Shown here: in pieces, positions 3,262 through 61,115 of the stretch | Layout of the letters: every line of letters starts with the position of its first letter | Numbering within the stretch: the stretch's first letter is position 1 | NCBI GenBank assembly: GCA_963805065.1 | Contig: CAWDSS010000012.1 | Span: 44,174-108,173 of the forward strand | Origin: Candidatus Omnitrophota bacterium | GTDB taxonomy: Bacteria > Omnitrophota > Gorgyraeia > Gygaellales > Profunditerraquicolaceae | Direction: 5' to 3' | DNA: 64,000 nucleotides | Notes under the pieces: model-generated | The model's input: only the letters and a program-made list of their open reading frames with translations | Told to the model about the DNA's origin: nothing | Databases searched by the model: none | Made by a program: the position numbers and the translations under genes

Positions 3262-3296
3262 TTTACTTTTAACTTTTGGCTTTTAACTTTTTACTT
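3262..3296. repeat. heptanucleotide tandem array, A-rich family (5 units)
   Basis: TTTACTT TTAACTT TTGGCTT TTAACTT TTTACTT, directly upstream of the GH57 start codon. Confidence 0.8.
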
Positions 3297-3334
3297 ATAA
3301 AAAAAGCCCCCAGAGGAATTACCCTCCAGGGGCT
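3295..3334 (-). terminator. rho-independent terminator downstream of the porin gene
   Basis: Minus strand reads GCCCCTGGAGGG-loop-CCTCTGGGGGC followed by TTTTTTT. Confidence 0.6.
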
Positions 3335-3354
3335 TTGTTTGTTACATACTTAGA

Positions 3355-4957: not shown

Positions 4958-7057
4958 TTATACCACTGCCCTGGGGAATTCCAGGATAAATGCTGTGCCT
5001 ACACCGAGTTCGCTTCTAAAGGATATCTCTCCCTTGTTTTTCCAGACTAACTGCCTGACTATGGATAAGCCTAAGCCTGTGCCTTTGTTAGGGCCTTTGG
5101 TGGTAAAGAAGGGCTCGAATATCCTGTCTACGTGCGTCTCTGGTATGCCCTGGCCGGTGTCTTCCACTTCAATGTGCACCTTGTTAGCCTGGGTGGTAAA
5201 GACCCTCAAGGTGATTGTGCCAGGGGCTTCTATGGCTTGTCCGGCATTACGGATGATGTTGAAGAATATCTGCTGCATCTCATGCTTGTCAGCCAGGATT
5301 TTGTTAGGGTCGCTGGAGATCTCGGTTTTGATGTTTATGCGGTCTAGCTCTAAGTCATGGCCTGCCATGTCAAGGGCCTCTTCCATCTCTTCTACTACGC
5401 TGATCAGCTCAGGCTTAAATTCCTTGCCAGGCTTGGCAAAGTTAGCCAGCTTTTTGGCGATTTGAGAGATTCTCTCTGACTGCCTGAGGCATTCATCCAG
5501 CACTGCCTCTGCTTCATCTAAGGCTTCTTGATTAGATTTATCATTGAGCAGGCCTTTTTGCCGGGCAAGCTTGAATAGCTGGATGCGGGTAGCCATGATG
5601 TTTAAGGGGTTACCTATCTCATGGTAGATGCCGGCAGACATGGTGCCTATGGCAGCGCGGCGCTCAGCCTGGGCAGCTTCCTGCAACAGCTGGGCATTGC
5701 CTACGGCTACGGATTCAGTGCGGGCAAGGTCAGAGAGTATGTCTAAGTCATCCTTGGTATAATCGGCATCAGACTTCTTCCTGCCCAGGGAGATAAAGCC
5801 GATTAGGTCATCATGCAGCATTAAGGGCAGGCAGATGACTGCCTGGATGCTCTGCATCTCCTTCTGGATTTCCTGGCTTACTCCGGTGATGCCGTCTATT
5901 TCCTTGGTGATGGCTGGCTGCTGGGATTGCTTGAAGAAGGTGATGAGTTGGGAGCTAGAGGAGAAGATAGTGTCTTTGTTTTGTATGCCTTGGGCGCTAT
6001 AGAGCTGGTATACACCTTCTGCCTTGTTGAGGATAAAGATACCGGCAGTATAGGGATGAATGGTGTCATTGAGTAATTCCAGGGTGGAGTTAAATATCTG
6101 ATCCAGGCTTAAGACAGTGATTACTTCATCGATGAAGGCCTTTAAGATCTGCTTGTATTCGTATTTCTTCTGAAAGAGGAACTTGTCGGTTGAGTCAATG
6201 AGCAGGCTTTCTAAAGGGCTTAAGCCCATGATGATGATTATGGAGCTTATGGCTAGAGAGATAAAGCTACCTGCTCCCAAGACATGGGAGACTATGAGAG
6301 TGGTGATGACAAACACGCCAAAGGCAAAGATAAACATGCCGGCAAATACAAAGGATTTCCTGATGATTACCTCGATGTCCATGAAGTGGTGGCGCACTAT
6401 GGCGTAGGTGGTGATCAGGTTAAAAAGTATAACTAACAGCTTATCTATACGGGTAATTGAGATATCAAGCGGTAGGAGTAAATACATAATCCCTGCCGCA
6501 GAAATGCAGGTTGTGGATACAATCACATGGTTCAATTGCGCTCTGTCGTACGCAGATATTTTCTCTCCCATTCTTTCTAATACAAGATAGGCGCAATAGG
6601 CTACGCAGGATAAAAAATAAGGTAAATAGAGAAAAAACCAGACGGGCCCGGGTATGGCGATATACTTAAAAAATAAACCGGGTTGAATATCCTTTACTAA
6701 CAAGGGGCGTAAATTCGGCAGGAGATTAAACAAAAGCATAACTATAGATAACAAGTAAAACGTCGTCAGGGCTGTTTTTCTTTGTTTCTTTTTTTCTGTA
6801 AGGATTAAAAGAAAACGTAAGCCTAAAATGGGAGCAAAAGCAGCACCTACAAAAACAAATTTGTCCCAGAATAACGCTTGAGCGTGGCTGGAGACCGAAT
6901 TTTCATTAAAAGAGCCAAACACCCACATGAATATGGCGATACTGAGTAATGCATAAGCCCTGTTAAGAGGATTATTTTTGTTTTTCAGGTAGACGAAGAT
7001 GCCGAGGAATGCGGATGATGCAAAGCTTGTTATGGAAGTGAGGTCGTATAAATTCAT
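4958..7057 (-). CDS. sensor histidine kinase (multi-TM N-terminus, GAF-like, HisKA, HATPase_c); no adjacent response regulator
   Basis: 699 aa with about 8 hydrophobic helices, an H-box (SAGIYHEIGNPLN), an N-box (FFNIIRNAGQA) and G-boxes (DTGQGIP...GTGLGLSI). Confidence 0.85.
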   Translation of the reverse strand: MNLYDLTSITSFASSAFLGIFVYLKNKNNPLNRAYALLSIAIFMWVFGSFNENSVSSHAQALFWDKFVFVGAAFAPILGLRFLLILTEKKKQRKTALTTFYLLSIVMLLFNLLPNLRPLLVKDIQPGLFFKYIAIPGPVWFFLYLPYFLSCVAYCAYLVLERMGEKISAYDRAQLNHVIVSTTCISAAGIMYLLLPLDISITRIDKLLVILFNLITTYAIVRHHFMDIEVIIRKSFVFAGMFIFAFGVFVITTLIVSHVLGAGSFISLAISSIIIIMGLSPLESLLIDSTDKFLFQKKYEYKQILKAFIDEVITVLSLDQIFNSTLELLNDTIHPYTAGIFILNKAEGVYQLYSAQGIQNKDTIFSSSSQLITFFKQSQQPAITKEIDGITGVSQEIQKEMQSIQAVICLPLMLHDDLIGFISLGRKKSDADYTKDDLDILSDLARTESVAVGNAQLLQEAAQAERRAAIGTMSAGIYHEIGNPLNIMATRIQLFKLARQKGLLNDKSNQEALDEAEAVLDECLRQSERISQIAKKLANFAKPGKEFKPELISVVEEMEEALDMAGHDLELDRINIKTEISSDPNKILADKHEMQQIFFNIIRNAGQAIEAPGTITLRVFTTQANKVHIEVEDTGQGIPETHVDRIFEPFFTTKGPNKGTGLGLSIVRQLVWKNKGEISFRSELGVGTAFILEFPRAVV

Positions 7058-8803: not shown

Positions 8804-9616
8804 CTATTCATTTTCTTGCTGCTCGACAAACTTTCTTAGTTTTTTTAGAGCAGCTTCTTCTATCTGACGGATTCTTTCGCGCGAAACCCCTAATTTTTTT
8901 GCCACTTCTGCCAATGTCTGCGGCGCAGAATTTAACAAGCCAAAACGCATATCCAGGATTTCTCGTTCCCTGTCAGTCATGATTTCCAGAAGATTATCCA
9001 GCCTTTCTTTATTCAAGAGGCGCTCAATATCTGCGCTGGGAGCTTGGATAGTTTCATCTTCAATTAAATCCGATACCTGGCTTTCATCTTCTTCTCCTAT
9101 GGGAGCTTCCAGGGAAGAAGTGGACGATGATAGCCAGAAATTAATCTGATCCACTTTATCTTTATTCAGCCTTAATTTTTTGGCTAATTCGCGGTCGGTG
9201 GGCAGGCGTTTTAATTTTTGAGACATGCGTTCCTTTTCTTTTCTCCATTTGGTAATCAGGTCATTCATATAAACCGGAACGCGGATTATTTTCCCTGCTC
9301 GGAGAGCGAACGGGTAATTCCCTGCTTAATCCACCAGGCTGCATAGGTTGAGAAACGGTAGCCTTTTTTGGGGTTAAATTTTTCCACTGCTTTCATCAAT
9401 CCGAGGTTGCCTTCCTCGATTAAATCCAGAAACGGCATCCCCAGGTGCATATAGCGTTTGGCAATGTTGATTACAAGGCGAAGGTTGACCGCGAATCATG
9501 CTCTTGCGCGCATGCTCATCGCCTTTCTTTATTTTCTTACTCAGCGTTATTTCTTGTTCCGCTGTGAGCAGTGGAATGTGCCGGATGTCTTTAAGGTAAG
9601 TTTTTAGGGCTTCCAT
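8804..9616 (-). pseudogene. sigma-70 family RNA polymerase sigma factor (short RpoD-like), interrupted by two frameshifts as sequenced
   Basis: The N-terminal fragment (9374..9616) and C-terminal fragment (8804..9268) are in the track. A third frame between them reads [64 protein letters not shown] (region 2). Region 4 reads LAEVAKKLGVSRERIRQIEEAALKKLR. The shifts are near 9289-9292 (T4 run) and about 9485-9492. Confidence 0.85.
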
Positions 9617-9621: not shown

Positions 9622-9656
9622 CGACTATCCTATTCTATTTGGGTCAATGGTCAATT
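9622..9656. repeat. heptanucleotide tandem array, GACTAT/GTCAAT family (degenerate, 5 units)
   Basis: CGACTAT CCTATTC TATTTGG GTCAATG GTCAATT, between the ppdK stop and the sigma-factor start. Confidence 0.55.
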
Positions 9657-9658
9657 TT

Positions 9659-12408
9659 CTACTTTTTCTTTGCGCTCTTCTCTTTCAATACTGCCTGTGC
9701 TGCTGCTAATTTTGCAATCGGCACACGGAATGGCGAACAACTGACATAATCCATGCCGACACTATGGCAGAATTCAACTGAACGTGGTTCTCCGCCGTGC
9801 TCACCGCAGATACCTACTTCCAGGTCCTTACGTGTCTTGCTGCCGCGTTCAATCCCTATTTTGATCAGTTCGCCGATTCCTTCCTGGTCGATGCTCTGGA
9901 AGGGATCTTCGGGAAGTATGCCTTTTTTGATATAGTCCGGCAGAAATCCTCCGATATCATCGCGCGAAAATCCAAAACCCATCTGGGTCAAATCATTTGT
10001 CCCGAATGAGAAGAATTGATGCGACTTGCGACAGTTTATCAGCCACGATAGCTGCGCGCGGAATTTCAATCATCGTGCCGAACATAGTGCTTGATTTTTT
10101 TTAGCGTTATATTTTGCCAAAACTTCCTCATAAACTTTTTTGGCAATGGCCAACTGGTCATTCAATTCCTTTACATCGCAGACTACGGGAATCATTATTT
10201 CCGGATAAGGTTTCTTCCCCTCTTTGATTAATTCCGCTGCTGCATCAAATATAGCGCGTATCTGCATTTCACTTACTTCAGGATAGGTAATGCCCAGGCG
10301 CACACCGCGATGCCCCATCATGGGATTTGATTCATGAAGATTTTCAGCACGCTTGGAAAGTTCTTCCATGGTGATATTTAAATCGTTGAGCCAGTTGCTC
10401 TAATTTTGCTTTTTCGCGCGGCACAAATTCATGCAAGGGCGGGTCAAGCAAACGGATGACTACCGGAAAGCCATCCATTGCTTCCATCGTGCCTTTGATA
10501 TCTTTCTTTACATAGGGGAACAGCTCTTCAAGCGCTGTCCTTCTTTCCTCCTCTGTTTTAGAAATAATCATCTTACGCAAAATGAAGAGCGGTTCATCAG
10601 AACCCTTGCCATAAAACATATGTTCGGTCCTGAACAAGCCGATGCCTTCTGCGCCAAATTGCCTGGCTTTTTTGCATCTTCCGGAGTATCGGCATTAGTC
10701 CTTACTCCCAACCTTTTTATGGAATCGCACATTTTAAGGAAATCCAGCAAAACCTTGTTTTCCTCAGAAGCATCCATCATCGGGAGCTTTCCTTCATAGA
10801 CATTGCCTTTGGTGCCGTTTAAAGTGATCCAGTCGCCTTCTTTGAAGTTTTTCCCGTCGATAATCAGCACTTTCTTAGCATAATCAACATGCAAGCTGCC
10901 GCAACCGACAATACAGCATTTGCCCCAGCCGCGGGCTACTAATGCCGCATGGGAAGTCATGCCGCCGCGGGCAGTGAGAATCGCCTCTGCCGCGCGCATA
11001 CCTTCAACGTCTTCGGGATTAGTCTCTTCACGCACAAGAATTACTTTTTTGCCCTGTTTTGCCCATTCAACAGCATCATTAGCAGAGAATACTATTTGCC
11101 CAGTTGCTCCGCCGGGGCCGGCTGGCAGACCTTTAGCCAAAGGTTTATTCGACGCTTCTGCCTTGGGTCGATAACCGGATGCAAAAGCTCATCTAATTGG
11201 GCAGGGGTTACGCGCATCAGCTGTCTTCTTTATTAATCAGTTTTTCTTTTATCATATCCACAGCCATTCTTACTGCTGCCGGCCCATTGCGTTTGCCTAC
11301 GCGGCACTGAAGCATAAATAAGCGGCCTTTTTCAATGGTAAATTCAATATCCTGCATATCGTGGTAATGTTTTTCCAGTCGATTCTGGATATGCAGAATA
11401 ATTCTTTATAAATTGCCGGCATTGCTTTTTCCAGCGTTACCAAATCTTTATTATGTTCTGATTTTGAATATTCATTGATGGGAGCAGGTGTGCGGATACC
11501 GGCGACCACGTCTTCGCCTTGCGCATTAATCAAATATTCGCCGTAGAATTTATTTTCTCCGTTTCCGGGATTACGGGTAAAGGCAACTCCGGTAGCAGAA
11601 TCATTGCCCATGTTTCCAAAGACCATGGTCTGGACATTAACTGCCGTACCCCATTCATCAGGAATATTTTCAATTCTGCGATAGCTGATTGCGCGTTTTC
11701 CCTTCCATGAAGCAAATACCGCGCCGATACCGCCCCATAGCTGGTCATATGGGTCATCAGGAAAATCTTTTTTCAGGACTTCCTTTATCTTAGCCTTAAA
11801 TGATAACGCAGAGTTTCTTTAAATCATCGCCAGTTAAGTCTGTATCGCTCTTATAGCCTTTTTCTTTCTTTACCTGGTCCATGATTTTTTCCAGCTGTTT
11901 ACGAATTCCCTGCTCATCTTTTGGCTCGATGCCGGCAGCTTTTTCCATAACTACGTCAGAATACATCATAATTAGCCTGCGGTAGGCATCATAAACAAAA
12001 CGGCTGTTACCACCGCTTTGTTTGATCAATCCGGGAATTGTTTTTTCCGTTAAGCCTACGTTTAAAACTGTTTCCATCATCCCTGGCATGGAATTTCTGG
12101 CGCCGGAGCGCACGGAAACCAAAAGCGGATTATTTGCGTCGCCGAATTTCCTTGCCCATAAGTTTTTCTACTTTTTCCAGGGCCTTATGTACCTCTTCTT
12201 TCAGCCCTTTAGGATATGTTTTTTTATTTTGATAATAATAGGTGCAAACTTCGGTGGTAATAGTAAAACCCGGAGGAACAGGAAGTTTTAAATCTTTATG
12301 CCCTGCCATTTCGGCTAAATTTGCGCCTTTGCCTCCGAGGAGATTTTTCATGCTTTCATTACCATCTGCCTTGCCGCCTCCAAAGCTGTAAACGTATTTC
12401 TTTGCCAT
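9659..12408 (-). pseudogene. ppdK: pyruvate, phosphate dikinase, split into at least 7 ORF fragments by frameshifts as sequenced
   Basis: Start MAKKYVYSFGGGKADGNESMKNLLGGKGANLAEM, preceded by a GGAGGG RBS. Later fragments carry GGMTSHAALVARGWGKCCIVG (phospho-His loop), [12 protein letters not shown] and [15 protein letters not shown]. One break coincides with the T8 run at 10095-10102. Confidence 0.9.
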
Positions 12409-12450: not shown

Positions 12451-12520
12451 GTCTATAGTCGATAGTCTATAGCCAATAGTAAAAACAAAAACCATCGGCC
12501 ATTGACCATAGACTATTGAC
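12451..12520. repeat. heptanucleotide tandem array, GTCTATA/TATTGAC family (10 in-phase units forming an inverted repeat)
   Basis: GTCTATA GTCGATA GTCTATA GCCAATA GTAAAAA CAAAAAC CATCGGC CATTGAC CATAGAC TATTGAC, between the glyQS stop and the ppdK start. Confidence 0.85.
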
Positions 12521-12521
12521 C

Positions 12522-13896
12522 TTAATCAATATCACTTAATTTTCTTAAAATATACTCTTTTAATTTATCTATGCCAATACGGTCCTGTTTCATTGAATCC
12601 CTGTCGCGCACGGTAACCTGTTTATCCTCTAACGACTGAACATCCACGGTTACGCAAAGAAGCGTCCCTACTTCATCTTGCCGGCGGTAGAGCTTACCGA
12701 TAGCGCCTGTGTCATCATATACAGTAATAAAGCTTTTCTTTAAATCGCTCGCTAGCTTCTTTGCTAATTCAACTATTTCCGGGCGATTCCTTAAAAGCGG
12801 CAGCACTGCCACTTTAACCGGAGCCAAATCCTTATGCAATTTTAAAACTACCCTTAAATCATCTTTGACTTTTTCCTCAAAATATGCGTCAGTTAAGAAT
12901 GCCAAAACACTCCTGTCTACTCCTCCCGAAGGCTCAATAATATAGGGATAGAATTTTTCCTTGGCTGCATCGTCAAAATATTGTAATTCTTTACCGCTAA
13001 ATTGGCTGTGCTGTTTCAAATCAAAATCCGTGCGGTTGGCGATTCCTTCTAATTCAGACCAGCCGAAAGGAAAATTATATTCTATATCCGTGCAGGCCTT
13101 GGCATAATGCGCAAGCTCATCCTTAGAGTGCGGCCGCTGCCTCAAGTTTTCTTTTTTAATGCCTAAATTTAAATACCAATTAAATCGGGATTCTATCCAT
13201 TCTTCTAATTCTTTGTCCGCATCTTTGGGATTAACAAAATATTCTATTTCCATTTGTTCAAATTCGCGGGTGCGAAATGTAAAGTTTCCCGGGGTGATTT
13301 CATTGCGGAAGGCTTTACCTATTTGAGCCATACCAAAGGGCAGTTTAGGATGTTTTGTGTCAAGGATATTAAGAAAATTCACAAACATACCCTGGGCAGT
13401 CTCAGGACGCAAGTAAATCAGATTTCCAGCATCTTCTACCGGTCCCTGATGAGTTTGAAACATAAGATTAAAAGGTCTACCCTCTGTTAACTCGCCTCCA
13501 CATTCAGGACATTTATTTTTATCTTTTCCCGCCAAGCTATTTATAGCAGGCGGGATCCCGCCCTCGTTTAATATCGCTTGGCGGGATAAATCCTTTGTTT
13601 TAAAACGCTTCTTACATTTCTTGCAGTCGCTTTTTAAATCAAAGAAATTTTGCACATGGCCGGAAGCCTCCCAGACTTTGGGATGCATGAGAATTGCCGC
13701 ATCCATGCCCGAATACATCATCGCGCTCATAGACTACAGATTTCCACCATGCACGCTTAAGGTTATTCTTTAGCTCAACGCCATAAGGCCCGTAGTCCCA
13801 GGTATTACTCAATCCTCCGTATATTTCCGAAGATTGAAAAATAAACCCGCGGCGCTTGCAAAGTGAAACAATTTTATCCATTAGATTATCAGGCAT
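12522..13896 (-). pseudogene. glyQS: glycine--tRNA ligase (dimeric GlyQS type), one frameshift as sequenced
   Basis: The fragments 13639..13896 ([39 protein letters not shown]...) and 12522..13730 overlap in different frames. The shift maps to the CCC run at 13708-13710. Confidence 0.9.
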
Positions 13897-13943
13897 AGAT
13901 TATTATTTTTACCTAAATTGAATTGCTTGTCAAGACATTTAAC

Positions 13944-14666
13944 TTAGGGAACCGTCTTGACGGTAGAGATTATGGCGTATACGCTGTTTAAGTCAAGGGT
14001 AGCGCCTTTATCTTTTATATAAACTTTAAAAAAACTACCTTCTTTATTGAATATATCGCAATCAAAATAATTATAGTCTTTGTTAAGGCTGTAATTAATA
14101 AAGCCGTATTTATCCTGGATAGTAAATTGAGCCATGTGCGCATCTTTCTGATTACCAAGGTCAGGGATGAAAATACCCTTTATAATTATAAAAAAGGCAT
14201 CGGTAAGAGTGTTGACCTCTGGCAGAGTCGCATACATGGTCCTTTTTATAAATTCATAATCGTTATTTACGCCGGCTTTTTTAAGCTGCGGGAACAACCC
14301 CATAAAAAATTGGGGTTTTTCATAAAGAAGATAAATCACATTATCATAAATAGGCCGCTTGCTTTTTTTGTAGTAAATCTTTTTAATCCTTTCTTTGACC
14401 ACTGTAAAGCCCTTTGGTACGCAAACAGACATATCGGGCCAGTCATTACTGGGTATAAGTTTTATTAAGCAGGTTTGTTGAACTTGCGGGTTAATAATTT
14501 CCGAACTGGGAGTCATACAAAGGATAGGGATAGTTTGGCAATCTCCAATTCCTGCTTTTATATAAGATTTGAGGACTGGGGGCATAGCGAATTTTATTAT
14601 AAAAATAATTGCCAATGATAAGAACACGATAGCAGAAAGGAAATTTTTGAGGATATTTGTTTTCAT
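13944..14666 (-). CDS. hypothetical membrane-anchored protein
   Basis: 240-aa ORF with one N-terminal TM helix (AIVFLSLAIIFIIKF). I recognise no motif. Confidence 0.4.
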   Translation of the reverse strand: MKTNILKNFLSAIVFLSLAIIFIIKFAMPPVLKSYIKAGIGDCQTIPILCMTPSSEIINPQVQQTCLIKLIPSNDWPDMSVCVPKGFTVVKERIKKIYYKKSKRPIYDNVIYLLYEKPQFFMGLFPQLKKAGVNNDYEFIKRTMYATLPEVNTLTDAFFIIIKGIFIPDLGNQKDAHMAQFTIQDKYGFINYSLNKDYNYFDCDIFNKEGSFFKVYIKDKGATLDLNSVYAIISTVKTVP

Positions 14667-14670: not shown

Positions 14671-15504
14671 TTAGCCTAGCTTTTTTAATTCCTCTTCTTT
14701 TATGGAAAAGGTATGTTGCGCAGAGGGAAATTTTCCCTCAATTACCTCTGTTTTATATTCTTCGATTGCCTTTAGGATTAAGGGTGAAAGGTTGATGTAT
14801 TTTTTGACAAATTTGGGGGTAAAGCGTTCGAACAACCCAATCAGGTCATGTATTACCAATACCTGTCCGTCGCAGTTTACGCCTGCGCCGATGCCGATTA
14901 TAGGAATGTTTAATTTTCTTGTGATTAGCTCTGCGATTTTATCCGGGACGCATTCAAGCACAATGGAGAAGCAGCCGAGTTTTTCCAACTCAATCGCCTG
15001 CTGAATCAATTGCTTCGCATGCTCTGCGTCTTTACCCTGCACCTTAAAACCTCCTAATTTATCCGCGGTTTGCGGCGTAAGGCCGATGTGGCCCATTACC
15101 GGTATACCTGATTTAATTAAATTTTTGGTTACCTCAAGGCACTTATCAAACCACTCTAATTTTACCGCGTCACATTTTGCTTCCTCTATGAATCTTTTGG
15201 CATTTTTTACCGATTCTGCTGTATTAACCTGATATGAATCAAACGGCATATCACCCACAACCAATGCGTGCTTTACAGCCCTGGTGACTGCTTTAGCATG
15301 GTGAATCATCTCCTGCATGCCGACTTTGGTAGTTGAATCTAATCCCAGCACTACATTGGCTAAAGAATCGCCCACCAAAATCATATCAATACCTGCCTTA
15401 TCCACTAAAGATGCTATAGGATAATCATAAGCTGTGAGCATGGTAATCTTACGCTTACCTTTCAGTAATAATATATCCTTTACAGTAACTTTTAAATTAT
15501 CCAT
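14671..15504 (-). CDS. panB: 3-methyl-2-oxobutanoate hydroxymethyltransferase
   Basis: 277 aa with ITMLTAYDYPIASLVDKAGIDMILVGDSLANVVLG and VKLE. Confidence 0.9.
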   Translation of the reverse strand: MDNLKVTVKDILLLKGKRKITMLTAYDYPIASLVDKAGIDMILVGDSLANVVLGLDSTTKVGMQEMIHHAKAVTRAVKHALVVGDMPFDSYQVNTAESVKNAKRFIEEAKCDAVKLEWFDKCLEVTKNLIKSGIPVMGHIGLTPQTADKLGGFKVQGKDAEHAKQLIQQAIELEKLGCFSIVLECVPDKIAELITRKLNIPIIGIGAGVNCDGQVLVIHDLIGLFERFTPKFVKKYINLSPLILKAIEEYKTEVIEGKFPSAQHTFSIKEEELKKLG

Positions 15505-15540: not shown

Positions 15541-16864
<1,324 letters not shown>

Positions 16865-16878: not shown

Positions 16879-19468
16879 ACTTTTTCATAAACCATTTCTT
16901 AACTACCTGGACTAAAAGTAAATAGGTAGCTGTCATAATAAACAGGGCTACAAAATACATGGGCGGCGGCTTGACGAATCCAAAAGGCTTAGCCAGTGGG
17001 GTAAATGGCATAGCAATACCTATGGAAACTATAATAATAGACATGAGCATCAAGAATCTGCTTGGCCGGCTTTCAATAAAAGGAATTTTACCGGTTCGGA
17101 TTATATGTATAACCAAAGTCTGGGTGCATAATGATTCTATGAACCAACCGGTATGAAAAAGTTCAGCTGAAGAATGAAAAATAAATAACATAACTCCGTA
17201 AGTTAAAAAATCGAAAATTGAACTTATCGGCCCGATAATCACCATAAAGTTCCTGATATACTTGACATTCCAGGGCCTGGGTTGAAAATATATTCTTTGT
17301 CAACTTGATCTGTAGGAATGCGCGATCTGCGATACATCATAAAGAAAATTATTCAAAAGTATTTGAATTGGCAGCATCGGTAAAAACGGCAAAAATAAAC
17401 TAGCCGCCGGTCATGCTAAACATATTGCCGAAATTAGAGCTTGAGCCCATCTTGATATACTTAATAATATTACCAAAGGTCTTTCTGCCTTCGATTACGC
17501 CATCTTCCAACACCATGAGGCTCTTTTTAAGCAGAATGATATCCGCCGATTCCTTGGCAATATCTACAGCATTATTTACCGAAATCCCGACATCGGAAGT
17601 TTTTAATGCCGGTGCATCGTTTATACCGTCACCCAAATACCCTACAATATGCCCATTTGCATGCAGGGCACGAATCACCCTTTCTTTTTGCAGAGGAGAT
17701 AGCCTGGCAAAGATATTAGTTGTTTTTACCAACTCTCTTAATTCATCATCATTTGTTTTTTCTACCTGATCTCCGGTAACCAGCCCTTTAACATCTAACC
17801 CTACTTCACTACATATTTTTCTAGTGACTAATTCATTATCTCCGGTTAATACTTTAAAATCTATACCCAGCTTTTTTAAGGCCTCGATGGCCTTTTTTGC
17901 AGTTGGCTTGGGAGGATCAAGAAAAGCAACGTAGCCTTTAAGGATCAAATCTTTCTCATCATCTTTTGAATAGGTTTCTTTATTTATGTCAAAATTTTTA
18001 TATGCAATAGCCAAAACCCTAAAGCCATCCGCGCTTAAACTATCGAATTCCTCTTTTAAATCCGAAATAATCAACGGGTCAATATCGAATATTTCACCAT
18101 CCAGTTCATAGTGAGTGCATCGCTTGAATATCTCCTCCGGTGCGCCTTTTGAAATAATCTTATGTTTATCATCCATCTCAACAACTACGGACATTATTTT
18201 CCTGGAGAAATCAAAGGGTATCTCGTCTATTTTTTTATATTGTTTTACTACTAATTTTTCATATTTAAGGATTGCTTTGTCCAAAAGGTTTTTAAGGCCT
18301 GTCTGATAAAAGCTATTAATATAGGCGTAACGCAGCACATCAGCATCCTCTTTTCTTACTACATCGCAGTGTTTTTCCAGGACTATCTTATCCATAGTAA
18401 GTGTTCCGGTTTTATCAGTACATAAAACATCCATGGCGCCAAAGTTCTGTATGGAATTCAGGCGCTTAACAATGACTTCTTTTTTCGACATGGAAATTGC
18501 ACCCTTAGAAAGATTAAGCGTTACGATCATAGGGAGCATTTCTGGCGTAAGTCCCACTGCAACACCCAAGAGAAAAGAGCAAGCTTCAATAAAATTACCA
18601 TGGCGGACGGCAATAATAGCAAATATAAACATCACCATGCAAATCATTGCCTTAACCATGAGCATGGTAAATTTATTAACCCCTTTATCAAAACTTGTTT
18701 CTACGCGCATAGTGGCATAGCTTGCGGGAAAGTTCGCCAAACTGCGTAGCAATACCGGTTTTTATGACTACTCCCAGCGCTGTACCGCTTACTACGCTTG
18801 AGCCCATAAAGGCGATATTAGATATAGACGGCTCGGAAATAGAATGGTTTTTTGGGGTGATAGGAGTGGCTGTCTTTTTCGACGGGGAAAGATTCTCCGG
18901 TTAAAGAAGCCTGGTTAATGAACAGGTCTTTGCAGGAAATAATCCGTAAGTCAGCGGGGATCATGTCTCCGGCAAAAAGGTCAACAACATCCCCGGGCAC
19001 TATTTCCCTGATACTTATTTCTTTAGATTTACCGTTACGTAATACCGTAGCGGTTGTGCGCACCATTTCACTTAGTTTTTCAGCTGCTTTACTGGCGCGA
19101 TGTTCCTGAATAAATGCCAGCATTACGCTCATCACAGCCATAAGAGAGACTATGATGGCGCTGATTTTCTCGCCAAAGAAAAGTGAGAATCCGCCGATAA
19201 TAAGCAGGACTATTACGAGAGGATTAAGGAATTTAGAAATAATTTCATGGAAGATCGTCCTCTTTTTTTTCTTGGCAGGCTCATTAAAACCGTATTCTTC
19301 AAGCCTGTTGCGGGATTCCTGTTCGCTTAAGCCCTTTTCGGATGTCTTCATTTTTTCGAAAAGGAGCTCGTTGGTGCATCCGGCGTAATCAAAATCAAGG
19401 ATTTGCGGCTTGATATTGCCGATTGTTTTAAGTTTAATATTTTTTGTTCCGTTGGGTTTTAGAGTCAT
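16865..19468 (-). pseudogene. mgtA: P-type (MgtA-like, magnesium-importing type) ATPase, split into 3 or more fragments by frameshifts as sequenced
   Basis: Fragments 18818..19468 (N-terminus, TGESFPVEK), 17400..18752 (CTDKTGTLT, GDGINDAPALK) and 16865..17245 (C-terminal TM helices). It overlaps the nfnA stop and the nfnB start. Confidence 0.8.
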
Positions 19469-20289: not shown

Positions 20290-21223
20290 TTTCTATAATT
20301 TTTACGTCTGTTTCGGGAAATTTCTTCGCGAGTAACTCCCCTTTTTTCTTTCCCAAAACGAATATGGCTGTTGATAGGGCATCCGCGGTCAACCCATCAG
20401 GTGCGATTACCGTTACGAACAAAAGCCCGGAATCTGCGGGGTAACCTGTTTTAGGATTCATTATATGGCCGTAATATTTATTTTTCTTAATGAAATACTG
20501 TTCGTAATTTCCTGACGTGGAAACGGATTTGTCTTTAAGGTGCATATAACCGATAACCTTTGAGTCCCGCGGATCCACAACCGCGATTATCCAGGGTTTT
20601 CCAAACCTTTCACCTAAACAATACACCTGTCCGCCTGCATTAATCAGGCAGGAATTGATACTTGCTTCCTTTAATTTGGCAACGGCACAATCCAAGGCAT
20701 AGCCTTTGCCAATCGCACCCAGATCAATTTTCATTCTTGAAATTTTAAATTGTATCACATTATCTACGTCATTCAAAATAATTTTATCTGAACCAACTAA
20801 ATCCAGGGTATCCCTGATTTCCTTTTCTTTGGGGGCGCGGTATTTTTTATCCGTAAATCCCCAAAGATCAGATAACACAGCAGTAGTGATATCAAATGCG
20901 CCATCACTTGCCTGATAGAACTTTTTGGATTCTTTTATGATGTAGAATGTATCGCTACTAGCCTTTATTTTTCCTGTCTTATTAAGCTTAGAAACTTCAC
21001 TTTCCGGCCTATACTTGCTTAATAAATCTTCTATTCTTTTAATTTCTTTGAAAACTATACCCGGCGCTTCTTTATAAGGTGATTTTACCTGAACAAAAGT
21101 CCCCATCATCACGCGGGTGTCTTTGTAAAGTTGCCTGTTCTGACAGCCGCTTAATAACGTAAAACTCAAAGCGCAAAGCGCAAAACTGATTTGACTTTTG
21201 CATTTTACGTTTTGAGTTAACAT
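20270..21223 (-). CDS. apbE: FAD:protein FMN transferase (ApbE family) lipoprotein
   Basis: 317 aa with a lipobox (LLSGC), RVMMGTFV, VSTSGNYEQYF and HIMNPKTGYP. The N-terminal signal peptide is encoded by heptamer repeats. Confidence 0.85.
   Translation of the reverse strand: MLTQNVKCKSQISFALCALSFTLLSGCQNRQLYKDTRVMMGTFVQVKSPYKEAPGIVFKEIKRIEDLLSKYRPESEVSKLNKTGKIKASSDTFYIIKESKKFYQASDGAFDITTAVLSDLWGFTDKKYRAPKEKEIRDTLDLVGSDKIILNDVDNVIQFKISRMKIDLGAIGKGYALDCAVAKLKEASINSCLINAGGQVYCLGERFGKPWIIAVVDPRDSKVIGYMHLKDKSVSTSGNYEQYFIKKNKYYGHIMNPKTGYPADSGLLFVTVIAPDGLTADALSTAIFVLGKKKGELLAKKFPETDVKIIENVQNYR
21158..21218. repeat. two opposed heptanucleotide arrays, A-rich family, inside the apbE 5' coding region
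   Basis: CGTAAAA CTCAAAG CGCAAAG CGCAAAA, then ctgat, then TTGACTT TTGCATT TTACGTT TTGAGTT. Together they encode MLTQNVKCKSQISFALCALSF. Confidence 0.8.
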
Positions 21224-23877: not shown

Positions 23878-23892
23878 CCTAACCTCCATAAT

Positions 23893-23955
23893 AAAAGGGG
23901 ACGTTTCTATTTTTCTTCTAATTAGGGAACGTTAAAAATAGAAACGTCCCCTTTT
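23893..23955. repeat. 64-bp palindromic element (GGGGACGTTTCTATTTTT arms), copy 1; probable bidirectional terminator after recO
   Basis: AAAAGGGGACGTTTCTATTTTT, a 19-nt loop, then AAAAATAGAAACGTCCCCTTTT. Confidence 0.8.
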
Positions 23956-23957
23956 AT

Positions 23958-24710
23958 TTAGACAGTAACTAATCTATTGAGTACTTTTTGAGATTTTAAT
24001 TCCCTTTCCAAATGAAAATTCAAAAACGCGTTTAATATTATATCCAGCTCTTTTTTTATCGCCGGATTCAACCCCAGTTTAAGGTTATTGGAGAAGTTGT
24101 TTTTTTCAATGTGCAGTATTGAGGCAATTGTGCCGTGAAAAATGTTACGGCTGCTTACGTCTTTAGAAAAGCACCCCTGGCAAAGCAGTCCCCCGAGTGC
24201 GAGGCTGAATTTCGTCTGGCCTAAGATCCTGTTGCCGCAGGAAACACAGGAATCAAAATGCGGCTTGAATCCGGAAAGCGCCAGCATCTTTATCTTAAAA
24301 ATAGTCATGATTTTATGCGCATTATTCGTTGTCCTTAATTCGCTAAGGCAGGTAAGAATCAGGTCAAACACCTCTTCGTTTTTATCTTCTACCGGCATAA
24401 CCGCGGCCACAAGCTCCATCATGTAACTGGCCATTGCGGATTTAATCATATCCATCCTGACAGCATCAAAATTATCCCTTGCATCAGCCTGGCTGACTAA
24501 ATGCAAAGAGGAGTTTATTTTCTTGTAAAATATGATTTCATTAAAAGAAAACGGCTCCACAGAACTTGCGAATTTCTTAGGCTCTGTCCTTATGCCTTTA
24601 AATATGCCGCTCATTTTGCCAAAATCCCGGGTGAAAAACTCGGCGATAAGCGAAGTCTCGCGGAAATCCATCCTTTTAATCACAAATGCCTCAGTTTTAT
24701 GTATGGGCAT
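23958..24710 (-). CDS. recO: DNA repair protein RecO
   Basis: 250 aa with an OB-fold N-terminus (EAFVIKRMDFRETSLI) and Zn-finger-like motifs CVSCGN...CQGC. Confidence 0.8.
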   Translation of the reverse strand: MPIHKTEAFVIKRMDFRETSLIAEFFTRDFGKMSGIFKGIRTEPKKFASSVEPFSFNEIIFYKKINSSLHLVSQADARDNFDAVRMDMIKSAMASYMMELVAAVMPVEDKNEEVFDLILTCLSELRTTNNAHKIMTIFKIKMLALSGFKPHFDSCVSCGNRILGQTKFSLALGGLLCQGCFSKDVSSRNIFHGTIASILHIEKNNFSNNLKLGLNPAIKKELDIILNAFLNFHLERELKSQKVLNRLVTV

Positions 24711-29423: not shown

Positions 29424-29457
29424 ATTAACCTCGATTGAATAAATTCAAAACGTAAAT

Positions 29458-29521
29458 AAAAGGGGACGTTTCTATTTTTAACGTTTCCTAATCAAAAGGA
29501 AAAATAGAAACGTCCCCTTTT
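29458..29521. repeat. 64-bp palindromic element, copy 2 (after hisS); loop in the opposite orientation to copy 1
   Basis: Arms are identical to copy 1. The loop AACGTTTCCTAATCAAAAGG is approximately the reverse complement of the copy-1 loop. Confidence 0.8.
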
Positions 29522-30753
29522 ATTAACTCATCTATAATATTACCTATTTTAACCTCTCTTTGTTCCCCTGAAATCATATCTTTCAACGTTACTACACCTT
29601 TTTTTAATTCGTCTTCGCCTAATATTAAAACAAATTTAGCTTTTAAATTATTGGCGGAGCGTAAGGCACCTTTAAGTGACTTTCCTTCATAATCGGTATC
29701 ACAAGCAATGCCTTTATTACGTAAGGTCATCAACAAATTTATTCCGGATTTTTTTGCCTCATCTCCCAAAGTTATCAAATAGACTAAGCCTTCAAGTGGC
29801 GCCTGCGGTGTACTACGGGAAACTAACAATAACCTTTCTACGCCAAAAGCAAATCCTATTGCTCCCACATCCGGCCCTCCTAATTCCTTGACCAGATTAT
29901 CGTACCTGCCTCCTGCGCCAATAGCATCCTGCGCCCCTAAATCAGGATGTGCAATCTCAAAAACAGTGCGGGTATAATAATCTAAGCCGCGGACCAGCCG
30001 AGGGCTAACTTCATAATTAATATTCAATGCATCCAGTCCTGATTTTACTTTATCAAAATGAGACTGGCAATCTGCACAAAGAAAGTTCTTACCAATATCT
30101 AATTTATTGACCACTTCCACACAGGCTGCATTTTTACAATCCAGGACCCTGAAAACATTGGTCTTGAATCTTAGATTGCAGTCATCGCAGAGTTTATTTA
30201 ACTTACCCTTAATTGCGTTACGTAATATCGCAGATAATTCCTTTTTGTCTTTGGCACACCCCAGGTTATTTATTTTAATTTTGTAACCACTAATAGAGAA
30301 ATTTCTAAGCAAGGTATCGGCAAGCGATATAATTTCCACATCCAAATTTGCGTCTGCTGAGCCTATGGCCTCACAGCCGATATGATGAAATTGACGCAGC
30401 CTGCCCTTTTGAGGCCTCTCCAGCCGAAACATAGGGCCCAAATAATATAATTTTAGGAACCCGCTGGTTTTATCCAGATTATTTTCGATGTAGGCGCGTA
30501 CGATAGAAGCCGTGCCTTCCGGCCGTAAAGCATATAAATCCTCTTTATTATGGAAGAGAAACATCTGTTTTTGCACTATTTCCGTGGATTCGCCAAGAGA
30601 GCGGTTGAATAAAGAGGCGTCTTCAATTAAAGGCGTGCGTATTTCACTATAGTTAAACCGAGAAAAAACATTGCGGCTTATTTCTTCTAGCTCCTGCCAA
30701 AGAAAGGCTTCTTCAGGCAGGATATCTTTTGTCCCGGGAACTCGTTTAAACAT
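29488..30753 (-). CDS. hisS: histidine--tRNA ligase
   Basis: 421 aa with GTKDILPEE, ALRPEGTASIVRAY, FRLERPQKGRLRQFHHIG and GGGRYD. The last codons run into a palindromic repeat. Confidence 0.9.
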   Translation of the reverse strand: MFKRVPGTKDILPEEAFLWQELEEISRNVFSRFNYSEIRTPLIEDASLFNRSLGESTEIVQKQMFLFHNKEDLYALRPEGTASIVRAYIENNLDKTSGFLKLYYLGPMFRLERPQKGRLRQFHHIGCEAIGSADANLDVEIISLADTLLRNFSISGYKIKINNLGCAKDKKELSAILRNAIKGKLNKLCDDCNLRFKTNVFRVLDCKNAACVEVVNKLDIGKNFLCADCQSHFDKVKSGLDALNINYEVSPRLVRGLDYYTRTVFEIAHPDLGAQDAIGAGGRYDNLVKELGGPDVGAIGFAFGVERLLLVSRSTPQAPLEGLVYLITLGDEAKKSGINLLMTLRNKGIACDTDYEGKSLKGALRSANNLKAKFVLILGEDELKKGVVTLKDMISGEQREVKIGNIIDELIKGDVSIFPFD

Positions 30754-34705: not shown

Positions 34706-34740
34706 CTTAAAACGTAAAAGGCAAAACGAAAAACTAAGGA
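34706..34740. repeat. heptanucleotide tandem array, A-rich family (5 units)
   Basis: CTTAAAA CGTAAAA GGCAAAA CGAAAAA CTAAGGA, between the guaA stop and the dnaE start. Confidence 0.8.
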
Positions 34741-38167: not shown

Positions 38168-41100
38168 TTAATTTTTCAAATAAGCTAATTCTTTGTTCTT
38201 TGCTGCATTATCCTGCTCTTCTCCCACTTTAGGAAAAGTGTTGAATATTACGTTTAAGTTATTTATCGGCTGCATCCTGATAATCTGAAAGGTAAAACCT
38301 TCTAAGTTACTCAGGTCAATTGGAGGCATTTTCACAGGTACTGAATTAGGAGCAGCTGCAACATCAATCGCACCTAAATCAATACCGCCTGGGTTATCGG
38401 CAATCTCAGAAGTCACCGCTGAGCTGGCAGCCATGAAAACATTATTTATAGTTATATTTCCTTTGCTTTCACGACTATCGTGAAGTGATTTGCTATAAAC
38501 TTTATGGCATTCGTAGGATAGTACAACATCCCGGCCTTGTCTACTAAATGATGTTGTAGTATGTAAGCGGCTTTCATCTTGCCATGTTGAATTATCTTGA
38601 TAATAACCAGACTGATATTGTTTTATTGCATCTTGATCTTTGTTTATAACACTCCTTACAAAGTTTTCAAATTGCGTTAGAATGCTCTTTATATTTTCCT
38701 TTATTAATGGAGCATAAATTATATCTCTCAATTCCTTCTGCAGTTGCTTCTTTGCTTGAGCAATTTGTGTAGTAACGGCTTCAGTTATCTCTGAGCTGGC
38801 CATATTATTAAGTAAGCTTGCTTCAATTTCACGCACACTCTGGCTCTGGCTTAGGGTAAATTTAACCTCCATTCCTTCCTTGAAGAAAAATCCTGTTTTC
38901 CAAATATTGTGCACTAATGCACGTAGGTTGGGTTTAGATGAACTATCGGAGAAATCATCGGTATAATGTGCAAGAAGATTCACGCCTCTAACGTTTTGTC
39001 TCCTCAGAGGATCCAGGGTGATCATATATTCTTTTCCGCCGATATCCTTTATTGTGATTGTGTTCAAGATTGCTTTTTTTGTAATGTGGCCCTCAGAGTC
39101 TTCCCCTGCCTCTAATGCATCATATATCAGCTGTGCAAGTTCCTTTACTGCCTTGCTGGATTGTGTTTCTATCGGCGAGCCGGCGGCTGCTAATCTTTCA
39201 GTATTAGATAATGGTGCTGCTTCGAGCAATTTAGTTATGTCTTCCTGGCGTGCCTGATTAAGCATAAGTTGCCTTACTAAGTCCATTTCCTTGGTTGAAA
39301 AACTCCATTGGTTATCATAGCCAACAGGCGTAGTGTAAAGCGGCCCTGCAATCTGCTCAATCATATCGTCAAAAAGAATAGAGCCTGTACTTTGACCAGT
39401 GATGGTATCTTCCCAGCGATATCGCCCATTAACTTTATCCTTTTCGCTAAATATTTTGATGTCCTCGGGGAATTCCTTTGCAATCATGGAAAGATAAAGT
39501 TTTACAGTTTCCTGCGGGACATTCTGAGGCAATAAAAGACTGAGGTCAAACACAGAACCACCCTTAATTATAACGTTACCATCCAAATAAGCAGTAGGTG
39601 TACGCATGGCTGTAAAAAGTGCATTTACCATGAGATGTTGAGCTACTCCTTTTGCCGCTCCGGTTGCCTTAGGGCTTAAATGGCCCTCGGGGTTTTCTTT
39701 ATCTTTACCGGTATACATATGAAAGGTTGGCCCTATTTCTGTAATGATCATAGTTCCAAATCCAGCTGCTAATTCCGATAGCGCTAGAGTAACATAGCTA
39801 TCACCATTAGTAGAACAAGAAGTTGTACTTATATACGATGCTCCTTTGGACTTGGTATAAGGCATTTTCTGTAAATAATCGCCTAGTTCATTAAAAGGAG
39901 CTCCCATAGGCACAAGCAATTTCTTAGGAATCTGGGCTTTTATATAAATGAATTGTTCGGCTCTTCCTTGCGCTAAACGATCTTTTTCTACCTGGGTTAA
40001 TATTTCCTTAAGGCGTGCTAATTCTTCCGGAGCGTCTCCTAATTTATCACTAGAGAAACTTAAATTATTTTTAGCTACAAAATCCCAAAGCGGAGTTCCA
40101 TCAAGCTTGATTTTCTTCTGCTTAAATAACTCGGAAATCTGTTGGTCGCCAATTTCTACTCCACCAGGTGTAGCATCAATAATAATCCCAAAGTAGTATG
40201 GTTTGCCGTCTTTTTCGTAAACAATCATCGGGCGAGGTATATTATCCAAATTTGTGCCTTCCAGTTTAAACGCTTCCACTAAACCCTGGTTAAACTGTCC
40301 TACATCTACATACCAGATAATCCCTACTTTCTTACCATCAAGAAGCACATTAACCGGATAAACGCTGGGAATTTGTGAAGGAGTTTGGAAATCAAGTTGT
40401 GCATTAAGCAATTCATTTCCTGGTTCAAAAGTCAGGCGATTAGCAGCTAAAAGATCGGTAACTTTCACTGATTTCCCATCACTTGTAACCAAACTCACAC
40501 CTGAACTTTTAACCTGCGGATCCTGAAAAATATCTTGCTTGGTTTTATTTACAGCAGTGGCAAATTTTTCTTCTGGAGTATTACCTTCAAGACTTCTAGT
40601 CCTTACTAAGAATCTACCGATAAAATTGGGATCCTTGTTATTATTAATGTTATATCTTAAGGTATAAACAACAGTAATGCTTCCAATCTCACCAGTTCCA
40701 TCAATGGCAATAAGAGGATTCTTCGAAGGAAGATCGGTCTTAGGATTATCATTTTTAAGATGTTTAAAACTAGCAATAAAATTATCCGTGCTTAATATCC
40801 CGGCAAGCTGAAGTATATCATAACACCAAATTCCTCCCTCATTAGCATAGGTAGAATATACTCTGGATAAATTATCTTTCTCAGCCTGTGATAGCGCTAT
40901 GCCTTTGCTTGCTAGATGACGAATTATGGCATCTGCATTTGCTCCATTTAGCTCTATAGCATCGCTGTTTCTCAATAGCTGGTTCAGTTTTGTGGCGTAC
41001 TTACCAATCTGAGCTCTTGCAGGTTCCATAACACGAGCTTCTTTGAAATGTTCCTGCGATAATTTTAGCAAATACCTATAAGTTCTGGCATAAAATCCAG

Positions 41101-44950: not shown

Positions 44951-45011
44951 GTTTTTTTTATGTTTTTTGGGAGGTCTATATCTTATTAATATTGGAAGGG
45001 TTAGCTCAAAT

Positions 45012-45042
45012 AAAAAGGGCGAAGATTTGAATTTCTCCGCCC
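45012..45042 (-). terminator. rho-independent terminator of groES-groEL
   Basis: Minus strand reads GGGCGGAGA-loop-TCTTCGCCC followed by TTTTTATTT. Confidence 0.7.
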
Positions 45043-45050: not shown

Positions 45051-45078
45051 CGACTATAGACTATCGACTATTGACTAT
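45051..45078. repeat. heptanucleotide tandem array, GACTAT family (4 units)
   Basis: CGACTAT AGACTAT CGACTAT TGACTAT, abutting the groEL stop codon. Confidence 0.85.
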
Positions 45079-48695: not shown

Positions 48696-48703
48696 AGAAT
48701 AAA

Positions 48704-48731
48704 GTCAAAACGTAAAAGTCAAAAGGCAAAA
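48704..48731. repeat. heptanucleotide tandem array, A-rich family (4 units)
   Basis: GTCAAAA CGTAAAA GTCAAAA GGCAAAA, directly upstream of the coaX start. Confidence 0.85.
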
Positions 48732-48739: not shown

Positions 48740-48800
48740 AAATGGGGACGTTTCTATTTTTCTGCTGCCCCAGAGACGTAAAAAATAGAAACGTCCCCAT

Positions 48801-58300: not shown

Positions 58301-58342
58301 AATAAGTATGGATTCTCGCTGCTAGGTTATCGGCTGTCGAAA

Positions 58343-58370
58343 GAACCAAAAACCAAGAACCTAGAACCTA
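58343..58370. repeat. heptanucleotide tandem array, GAACC family (4 units)
   Basis: GAACCAA AAACCAA GAACCTA GAACCTA, between the lemA stop and the aPGM-like gene start. Confidence 0.85.
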
Positions 58371-59714: not shown

Positions 59715-59718
59715 GCAA

Positions 59719-60441: not shown

Positions 60442-61115
60442 AAGCAACCTCCAATTATATCTATCAACTTGCAACTCATGACCTTCTTATTTGCTAATTC
60501 CATGGATATATTTTCCTTATCAATAACGTATGCCAAGTAATGGTTATCTGTAATAGAATTGGCAACGACGATATCCAAATTAGCCCGGTGCAAAAGTTTC
60601 TTTGCCTTTTTTTTAAGCAGCTGTTTGTTTACTTTGGGTTCAAATTTAAATCCCACCACTAAAGAAGACGGGCTTAACTTTTTTAAAGAATCGATTATTT
60701 TAGGAGTAGCCTTTAGCTTAAGTTGCCAGCTTTCTAGCCCCGAACTAATTTTAGAATTAAAATATCTCAAAGGCTTATAATCAGAAACTGCCGCTGAATG
60801 TATAATAATATCGTATTTTTTACGTTTTAGTTCCAACCTCATCAGCTTCTCTAGTTCTTCAAAAAACTTAAAGCGTATAAGCTTTATTTTTTTATCCAAA
60901 CAGCATGATTCAACCGGGCCTAAAAGTAATGTGACTTTAGCGCCTGAATCTTTTAATTTTTCGGCTAACAAAATACCGGTTTCACCTGATGCTGTGTTAC
61001 TTATTACCCTCACCTTGTCTATTGAAACCCACGTCGGGCCTGCGGTGATTAAAACTCGTTTGCCACTTAGGGTTCTAGGTTTTAGGTTCTTGGTTCTTGC
61101 TCTATCAGTAGCCAA
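60429..61115 (-). CDS. coaB: phosphopantothenate--cysteine ligase (stand-alone CoaB)
   Basis: [30 protein letters not shown] and AAVSDY. The N-terminal 15 aa are encoded by a heptamer repeat. Confidence 0.75.
61069..61096. repeat. heptanucleotide tandem array, GAACC family, inside the coaB 5' coding region
   Basis: AGGGTTC TAGGTTT TAGGTTC TTGGTTC. It encodes [11 protein letters not shown]. Confidence 0.8.

Follow-up and report, generated by a model that had tools for sequence, protein, structure and literature searches.

Short tandem arrays of seven-nucleotide units recur across the window (the whole 64-kb stretch of DNA analysed here), and period 7 is special among its tandem repeats. With a probability of about 0.6, we read them as slippage-prone heptamer SSR arrays residing in low-constraint DNA, and the opposed pair of half-arrays at 12451-12521 as an ORF-less element that resembles the 23S rRNA intervening sequences (IVS) and carries an RNase III-type stem. 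Tandem Repeats Finder (TRF) returned 12 period-7 rows in the 64-kb window, compared to a mean of 1.74 and a maximum of 5 in 100 dinucleotide-preserving shuffles, while periods other than 7 (and its multiple 14) were at expectation in the same comparison. Arrays of at least 3.5 copies stood well above the shuffled level, with 10 observed in the window versus 0.08 in shuffled sequence (maximum 1) and, in intergenic DNA alone, eight versus 0.15 (maximum 2). In intergenic DNA, the autocorrelation of base matches peaked at lags 7 and 14, and coding DNA had no such peaks. All the sites listed in the preliminary description were recovered by TRF except for 9622-9656, which had been described as strictly in phase and turned out to be degenerate, imperfectly phased and under the TRF threshold. 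Three TRF loci were additional to that list, namely 52966-52995, 61071-61097 and 21167-21184, the last of which is a portion of an opposed pair at 21156-21216.

The host is not a cyanobacterium, since its GlyRS is 80-82% identical to Candidatus Omnitrophota MAG proteins (82% being the highest identity to any relative in a metagenome scan) and since a contig designated L082 is syntenic with window positions 24323-1076 (approximately 23 kb) at 65-77% nucleotide identity. The window is bacterial chromosomal DNA of about 41% G+C, and its genes include dnaE, uvrB, polX, GH57, guaA, panB, thrC, groEL, valS, glyS, ppdK and apbE. Nearly all genes in the window (1-64000) are on the minus strand and the plus-strand GC skew is steadily negative, which makes up an unusually long one-directional block; as all arrays lie in this block, they are presumably transcribed. 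Several essential genes are split into several ORFs (valS, 51589-53649; groEL, 45079-46720; sigma-70, 8804-9616; and the segment upstream of glyS, 13639-13896), glyS seems to be missing its N-terminus, and ppdK (9659-12408) has at least 11 single-base indels, not at homopolymers, relative to the intact 914-aa gene of L082. The 6.5-kb ORF at 38168-44665 and dnaE are intact. The broken genes could reflect a locally poor assembly or real pseudogenes, and the frameshifts in essential genes make the local accuracy of the window sequence uncertain.

Intergenic DNA constitutes only about 8% of the window, yet eight of the 11 array loci are located there. The distance between an array and the nearest stop or start codon was 0-8 nt and both orientations were represented, in agreement with the placement noted earlier; the mRNA-sense orientation was mixed, and arrays following stop codons were as numerous as those preceding start codons. 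All loci described below are on the minus strand. Three single arrays, identified by TRF and in the sequence, precede start codons. The array at 3265-3300 (AAAAGTT AAAAGCC AAAAGTT AAAAGTA on the mRNA) follows a terminator hairpin and stops 4 nt short of the ATG (3260) of the GH57 gene. The array at 34709-34734, U-rich on the mRNA (TTTTTCG TTTTGCC TTTTACG TTTTAAG), is situated between the guaA stop codon (34759) and the dnaE ATG (34698), and the one at 48701-48731, also U-rich on the mRNA and additionally examined by folding, between a palindromic terminator-like element and the coaX ATG (48695). Single arrays, which are the majority in the window, were unstructured as RNA (approximately 0 kcal/mol; 0 kcal/mol for 3265-3300). 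None of the three downstream genes has a Shine-Dalgarno sequence, a strong GGAGG being found in about a quarter of the window genes. These unstructured arrays might take the place of the Shine-Dalgarno sequence by binding a translation factor, such as ribosomal protein S1, a cold-shock protein or a CsrA-like protein, or by offering it an unstructured landing pad, and the same pattern gave rise to the same proposal for the TAACTGA repeats of Beggiatoaceae (PMC4679880). We consider this improbable, as there are three cases only, two U-rich and one A-rich on the mRNA, so that no single RNA motif is shared; moreover, other genes without a Shine-Dalgarno sequence have no array, and many arrays are found after stop codons or inside genes.

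The remaining arrays outside the flagged pair and the fully coding loci are associated with gene ends. A single family-iii array at 45052-45079 (AATAGTC AATAGTC GATAGTC TATAGTC; TRF and sequence) lies directly past the groEL stop codon and ahead of an intrinsic-terminator hairpin, which places it in the 3′ UTR; it is identical at 26 of 26 nt to a portion of an array arm in L082. A single family-ii array at 58341-58368 (GGTTCTA GGTTCTT GGTTTTT GGTTCTT on the mRNA; TRF and sequence) is found between the stop codon (58386) of a LemA/MamQ-like gene and the downstream gene apgM (58300). The remnant at 9622-9656 consists of two TTGACCA units followed by ATAG-type units and is flanked by the ppdK stop codon (9659) and the sigma-70 start (9616). 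The single A-rich array at 15542-15573 (CTCAAAA CGTAAAT AGCAAAA CGCAAAA; TRF and sequence), upstream of panB (15504), runs over the final five codons of a gltD-like gene and its stop codon (15555), and no array was present at the orthologous L082 junction.

Three array loci are translated, a feature absent from the preliminary description: one encodes a signal peptide, one an N-terminal tail and one an inserted loop. The opposed pair at 21156-21216, recognized in the sequence, encodes the signal peptide of the ApbE lipoprotein, MLTQNVKCKSQISFALCALSFTLLSG|C, with the A-rich arm (21189-21216) specifying the basic n-region rich in Lys, Asn and Gln and the T-rich arm (21156-21188) the hydrophobic h-region. 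The signal peptide of the L082 ApbE orthologue is also heptamer-encoded, A-rich and then T-rich, with different units. The RNA fold of this pair is weak (z = −1.7). The family-ii array at 61071-61097 (AAGAACC AAGAACC TAAAACC TAGAACC on the mRNA; TRF and sequence), in the opposite orientation to the one at 58341-58368, makes up codons 7-15 of CoaB, just past the thrC stop codon. The array at 52966-52995 (TRF) is translated in frame in ValRS; alignment to the T. thermophilus enzyme (1GAX) placed it in a 13-residue insertion, in the loop joining the two Cys pairs of the zinc knuckle. All window arrays are confined to low-constraint sequence: the intergenic ones occupy spacers at stop or start codons, and the translated ones fall in the ApbE signal peptide, the N-terminal tail of CoaB and the surface loop of ValRS. 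The intergenic placement proposed earlier held for eight of 11 loci; the exceptions are the ApbE, ValRS and CoaB arrays, and the array at 15542-15573 runs into the end of the gltD-like gene. The arrays at the coding 5′ ends of apbE and coaB also bear on a very improbable explanation, according to which the loss or gain of a 7-nt unit shifts the reading frame or the promoter-to-start spacing and turns a gene on or off. Heptanucleotide phase variation is established for Haemophilus hmw (PMC12721329), and the unit number does vary among the paralogous copies described below. However, valS, dnaE, groEL, glyS and coaB are housekeeping genes whose switching would either kill the cell or bring it no benefit, the units are imperfect and most arrays are outside coding sequence.

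Several other candidates were rejected. Array-encoded small ORFs are incompatible with a phase of 7 nt. Intrinsic terminators do not explain the arrays, as ordinary GC-hairpin/T-run terminators merely adjoin some of them (at 3305-3340 and approximately 45000-45040) and single arrays do not fold. Heptad operator sites of the Omega/RHH type were dismissed because the loci and unit families are too many and most arrays are downstream of genes. Two further kinds of repeat were observed in the window. A palindromic repeat of approximately 65-70 nt, AAAAGGGGACGTTTCTATTTTT-[19-20 nt]-AAAAATAGAAACGTCCCCTTTT, is present in three copies (23890-23958, 29452-29527 and 48740-48800), all in gene spacers, and its 16-mer has six exact matches, where 0.07 would be expected. 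It resembles a terminator hairpin of the REP/MITE-like kind, and the copy at 48740-48800 is directly upstream of the heptamer array at 48701-48731. Tandem repeats with periods of 15, 18 and 30 (CCACCACCGCC…) at 58965-59061 encode a Gly-rich stretch in the ORF at 58959-59732 and are unrelated to the heptamers.

The flagged pair at 12451-12521 was characterized by TRF, which called it as 12451-12480 and 12491-12521, as well as by inspection of the sequence, RNA folding and arm alignments. It begins right after the TAA of the glycine-tRNA ligase gene glyS (12522), and downstream of it comes ppdK, which starts at 12408 and has the Shine-Dalgarno sequence GGAGGG. On the mRNA strand, the 5′ arm (GGTCAAT AGTCTAT GGTCAAT GGCCGAT GG) is followed by a 12-nt loop and the 3′ arm (CTATTGG CTATAGA CTATCGA CTATAGA CC). 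The RNA was predicted to fold into a stem of approximately 30 bp with one mismatch per 7 nt (−42.3 kcal/mol, z = −8.6), which substantiated the long hairpin that the preliminary description had suggested for the opposed half-arrays at 12451-12520. The terminal inverted repeats of an IVS, which pair into a long stem, thus have a counterpart here, and once transcribed the pair would probably adopt a stem of the RNase III type. The element occupies the glyS-ppdK spacer and not a 23S rRNA helix, and the window had no Rfam match to rRNA, two tRNAs being its only Rfam matches at gathering thresholds.

Comparison with related contigs suggested that the pair belongs to a dispersed family, a membership that had escaped the preliminary description. 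It is 78% identical over 81 nt, including the loop start TAGTAAAAAC, to an ORF-less pair in L082 (15335-15415). The latter occupies a non-orthologous site between apt and tRNA-Arg, at which the window is empty. The arms of the flagged pair also align with those around genes of the PF05635 family in L082, L167, L174 and L170. The 64-kb window has no PF05635 gene and the flagged pair has no ORF, and therefore its link to PF05635 rests on the related contigs. In L082, a 118-aa ORF at 18593-18949 matches PF05635, "23S rRNA intervening-sequence protein" (E = 5.7e-38), and is bracketed by the same arms as the ORF-less pair at 15335-15415. Filled and empty versions were found at two sites. The apt/tRNA-Arg site, empty in the window, holds the ORF-less pair in L082 and an ORF plus arms in L009 and L167, and the spacer between the porin and GH57 genes, which in the window has the single array at 3265-3300, holds a PF05635 gene with flanking arrays in L082 and L174. 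No target-site duplication was seen when filled and empty sites were compared. On this sequence comparison, an ORF-less, IVS-like element of a dispersed family is the best reading of 12451-12521.

The orthologous spacers revealed a rapid turnover of the arrays. The glyS-ppdK spacer has an opposed pair right after the stop codon in the window and in L002, L006, L010, L082 and L088, and arrays are also present in L085; the unit of the pairs differs per genome, and the two arms are complementary within each genome. The spacer contains a plain GC hairpin in L009, L012, L028, L086 and L089, and it is only 25 nt long, with neither array nor hairpin, in L001, L003, L004, L084 and L087. Most syntenic junctions between the window and L082 differ by the gain, loss or replacement of an array. 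Some related Omnitrophota contigs are rich in heptamer arrays (11 in 17.8 kb of L006 and seven in 21 kb of L082), and it is through such contigs that dispersal beyond the 64 kb was shown; opposed heptamer pairs were also found in contigs from other phyla. Each genome has unit families of its own, which turn up again at unlinked loci within it; a single conserved unit common to all genomes was rejected, since 94 arrays across the contigs gave 72 canonical units. Arrays were also noted in L058, a contig labelled as a Methanosarcinales archaeon MAG, at 6876-6912, 13849-13963 and 18962-18999, including NATAGTC units and (ACTAACG)x9; this contig encodes a bacterial-type GlyRS (55% identical) and may be misbinned.

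The association between arrays and PF05635 genes was consistent in the loci sampled. A heptamer array adjoined every PF05635 gene in the Omnitrophota-type loci examined (L009, L098, L137, L161-L169 and L170-L176), and most of the genes were bracketed by an opposed pair. Where the PF05635 proteins were at least 80% identical, the unit family GTCNATA/NGACTAT was kept at unrelated sites, and more distant proteins were accompanied by other units. Unit numbers were compared between paralogous and orthologous copies, in place of strain-level variants, and four paralogous copies in one assembly differed by whole units (3 versus 4 and 2 versus 5). Near-identical PF05635 genes are present in several copies per metagenome (L161-L165, L163 and L170-L173), with IS3 transposase and toxin-antitoxin genes (PIN, DUF433/DUF5615, HepT/NTP_transf_2) as neighbours. 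Many PF05635 homologues are on very short contigs, as repeated or mobile DNA would be.

A tblastn search of 72,556 plasmids with an Omnitrophota PF05635 protein as the query matched 30 records, of which 27 were from cyanobacteria, the classical STRR hosts. Short tandem arrays were present on both sides of the PF05635 gene at 12 of the 13 plasmid loci examined, the exception being Calothrix PCC 7716, which had no arrays around its gene; by comparison, of the 59 further genes in three of the plasmid regions that served as controls, not one had arrays at both ends, the PF05635 sample as a whole being modest and non-random. Ten of the 12 bracketed loci had opposed pairs (Nostoc, Aulosira, Geminocystis, Calothrix brevissima, Stanieria, Anabaena 90 and Azospirillum), and one of these, from Azospirillum lipoferum (L188), is a true 23S rRNA IVS with the arms CAGAGGA CGGATGA… and …TCTGTCA TCCGTCT. 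The other two, from Pseudanabaena and Gemmatirosa, had direct arrays on both sides. The latter locus, on plasmid 1 of Gemmatirosa kalamazoonensis (L189, approximately 1007600-1007915), belongs to a high-GC genome and its direct arrays have period 8, CTCCTGCC. In two cyanobacterial plasmids, the PF05635 gene, flanked by long heptamer arrays, lies within a CRISPR-cas locus: between cas6 and cas4 in Pseudanabaena galeata pPg_01 (L180, 46268-46627), and adjoining cas4 in Anabaena sp. 90 pANA02 (L187).

These data also bear on a simpler but, in our view, unlikely account, in which the arrays are neutral by-products of slippage, generated by a polymerase preference for 7-nt units and devoid of any RNA role, and the PF05635 association is incidental because both reside in permissive spacers. 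It accommodates the restriction of the arrays to low-constraint DNA, including the protein loop and the signal peptide, the mixed mRNA orientation, and the rapid gain, loss and unit turnover between syntenic genomes. It also agrees with the polymerase slippage that Mrazek (2007), as relayed in PMC4679880 and PMC4692102, proposed as the cause of long SSRs. Nevertheless, it does not predict that the two arms of a pair complement each other in every genome even though the units vary from one genome to the next, or that genome-specific unit families recur at unlinked loci. The bracketing of 12 of 13 plasmid PF05635 genes versus 0 of 59 controls argues against it as well, as does the conservation of arms across insertion sites where the PF05635 proteins are at least 80% identical. 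Each of the alternatives, i.e., neutral slippage, landing pads and on/off switching, covers part of the data, and none covers the PF05635 bracketing or the within-genome arm complementarity.

Under the preferred reading, slippage-prone arrays plus an IVS-like element, slipped-strand events of 7 or 14 nt at a time would lengthen, shorten and renew the arrays, and selection would restrict them to permissive sequence. Single arrays would yield unstructured A-rich or U-rich untranslated RNA, and opposed pairs would form long stems, mismatched once in every 7 nt, that most likely act as RNase III-type stems in polycistronic transcripts. With the Coxiella 23S IVS and the Haemophilus hmw 5′ UTR as precedents, the stem of the flagged pair would most likely be a substrate for RNase III, and cleavage there would part the glyS from the ppdK portion of the transcript. 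The ORF-less and ORF-bearing forms may have been derived from one another by ORF loss or by ORF gain. Some observations count against this reading, among them that the window has no PF05635 gene, that filled and empty sites showed no target-site duplication and that the window sequence is of uncertain local accuracy. Slippage is expected to be slower with imperfect units; family i units combine a conserved A4 block with three variable positions, which is unlike the simple decay of a slipped repeat; and the stem model explains pairs only, because most window arrays are single and unstructured. Same-family arrays in opposite orientation bracket gene blocks at two places: 58341-58368 and 61071-61097, which are complementary and 2.7 kb apart, and 48701-48731 and 52966-52995, 4.2 kb apart. 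Long-range pairing between such arrays is conceivable.

A broader idea, which we advance tentatively and regard as rather doubtful, is that the STRR-type arrays of Omnitrophota, cyanobacteria and others are, instead of free-standing microsatellites, arms or remnants of a widespread family of IVS-like hairpin elements built around PF05635 genes. In a partnership like that of RAYTs and REPINs, the hairpins would be recognized, maintained or spread by the PF05635 protein, a pentamer, or by the action of RNase III on their stems. If this were true, the 23S rRNA IVS would be merely the best-known insertion site of a far broader class of elements. The present data extend heptanucleotide arrays to an uncultured phylum and show that such arrays can form part of proteins, as in a signal peptide and a loop of ValRS. 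They also tie opposed arrays to the functionally uncharacterized PF05635 family and to RNase III-processed 23S rRNA intervening sequences. An old descriptive puzzle is thereby turned into testable questions: RNase III action on mRNA stems, PF05635 binding of hairpins, and array density in relation to PF05635 content.

The window arrays belong to the STRR/long-SSR class, which is already known, and the phylum Omnitrophota is new for this class. Heptanucleotide arrays have been catalogued in cyanobacteria since 1990 and across prokaryotes since 2007 and have, to our knowledge, no agreed origin or function. Cyanobacterial STRRs were first described in Calothrix PCC 7601 and are also found in Nostoc/Anabaena; their canonical units are CCCCAGT (STRR1), TTGGTCA (STRR2) and CAACAGT (STRR3). 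The resemblance to STRRs noted in the preliminary description was upheld at the level of the class. Like STRRs, the dispersed heptanucleotide tandems of the window lie mainly between genes, run in either orientation, comprise several families per genome and have no function established for them, and sampled cyanobacterial arrays also bracket PF05635 genes. The likeness did not extend to the host, which belongs to the Omnitrophota and not to the cyanobacteria (classically heterocystous), or to the units, as STRR1-3 did not occur even twice in tandem in the window; the window arrays are also short, with 4-5 units. The TAACTGA, GGGAATC, GACAGAT and ATCTTTC units likewise had no tandem occurrence in the 64-kb window.

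The preliminary description knew of no such repeats in other lineages, which the literature contradicts: heptamer repeats have been described in Xanthomonas, Beggiatoaceae, Bacteroidetes, Coxiella and Haemophilus (PMC4692102, PMC4679880, PMC4990558, PMC12721329). The literature searched contained no link between Omnitrophota and such repeats. According to Mrazek (2007), as cited in PMC4679880, heptanucleotide long SSRs are the most abundant class in most prokaryotic genomes. The window arrays conform to this type, being head-to-tail repeats of 5-11-nt units longer than expected by chance and, as is typical of units that are not a multiple of three, preferentially outside coding sequence. Heptanucleotide repeats have been detailed in Xanthomonas and Nostoc (PMC4692102), and in the GGGAATC arrays of Xanthomonas five positions are conserved and two vary, with 70-75 of about 185 forming convergent pairs (Rehm 2015, PMC4692102). 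The window shares with them the enrichment of period 7, about five conserved and two variable positions, approximately four units per array, many convergent (opposed) pairs and a repeat type that is kept between relatives while length and sequence vary. In contrast to Xanthomonas, the window units are AT-rich and allow no G-quadruplex, the phylum is different and some arrays are in coding regions. The TAACTGA arrays of Beggiatoaceae, described also in Cyanobacteria and Bacteroidetes, end just ahead of start codons without a Shine-Dalgarno sequence (MacGregor 2015, PMC4679880). Window arrays similarly end a few nt before such starts and in some cases lie in ORFs, but one dominant unit and orientation prevails in Beggiatoaceae, whereas the window has several families in mixed orientation.

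Repeat-gene partnerships of the REP/REPIN-RAYT kind offer a further parallel. Short palindromic repeats are dispersed in spacers as singlets and inverted doublets, and a gene is flanked by inverted copies, as are most of the sampled PF05635 genes. PF05635 proteins differ from RAYTs in having no known catalytic activity, and no biochemical function is known for the family (bioRxiv 10.1101/2024.02.27.582315; PMC4990558). Moreover, the arms of the window type are tandem arrays of variable unit number instead of a fixed palindrome of 20-40 nt, and the dependence of the repeat on the PF05635 gene is hypothesized only. In Haemophilus influenzae hmw1A, a transcribed heptamer array, (ATCTTTC)n in the 5′ UTR, forms one arm of a long hairpin that is processed by RNase III, and the change in repeat number requires RNase III, transcription and the hairpin (PMC12721329). 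Unlike the window pair, hmw1A is a single, phase-variable virulence locus with at least 10 perfect repeats and a non-repeat, G-rich partner arm.

A likeness in architecture also exists to the 23S rRNA IVS with an S23p/PF05635 ORF (Coxiella burnetii; Leptospira; Azospirillum L188), in which the terminal inverted repeats pair into a stem of some 28 bp and the four-helix-bundle ORF in the loop is optional; the corresponding stem of the window pair was obtained by folding. The Coxiella IVS carries three or four GACAGAT repeats, in strain-variable copy number, just upstream of the start of the S23p ORF, and RNase III cuts its 28-bp stem at the first repeat (Warrier 2016, PMC4990558). In the literature searched, Coxiella was the only case in which heptamers had been linked to S23p (PMC4990558). 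The window element differs in residing, without an ORF, in the glyS-ppdK mRNA spacer, and cleavage within repeats is a property of the Coxiella IVS that we infer for the flagged pair by analogy. In Azospirillum, the IVS arms themselves are tandem heptamers, as are those of the pair at 12451-12521.
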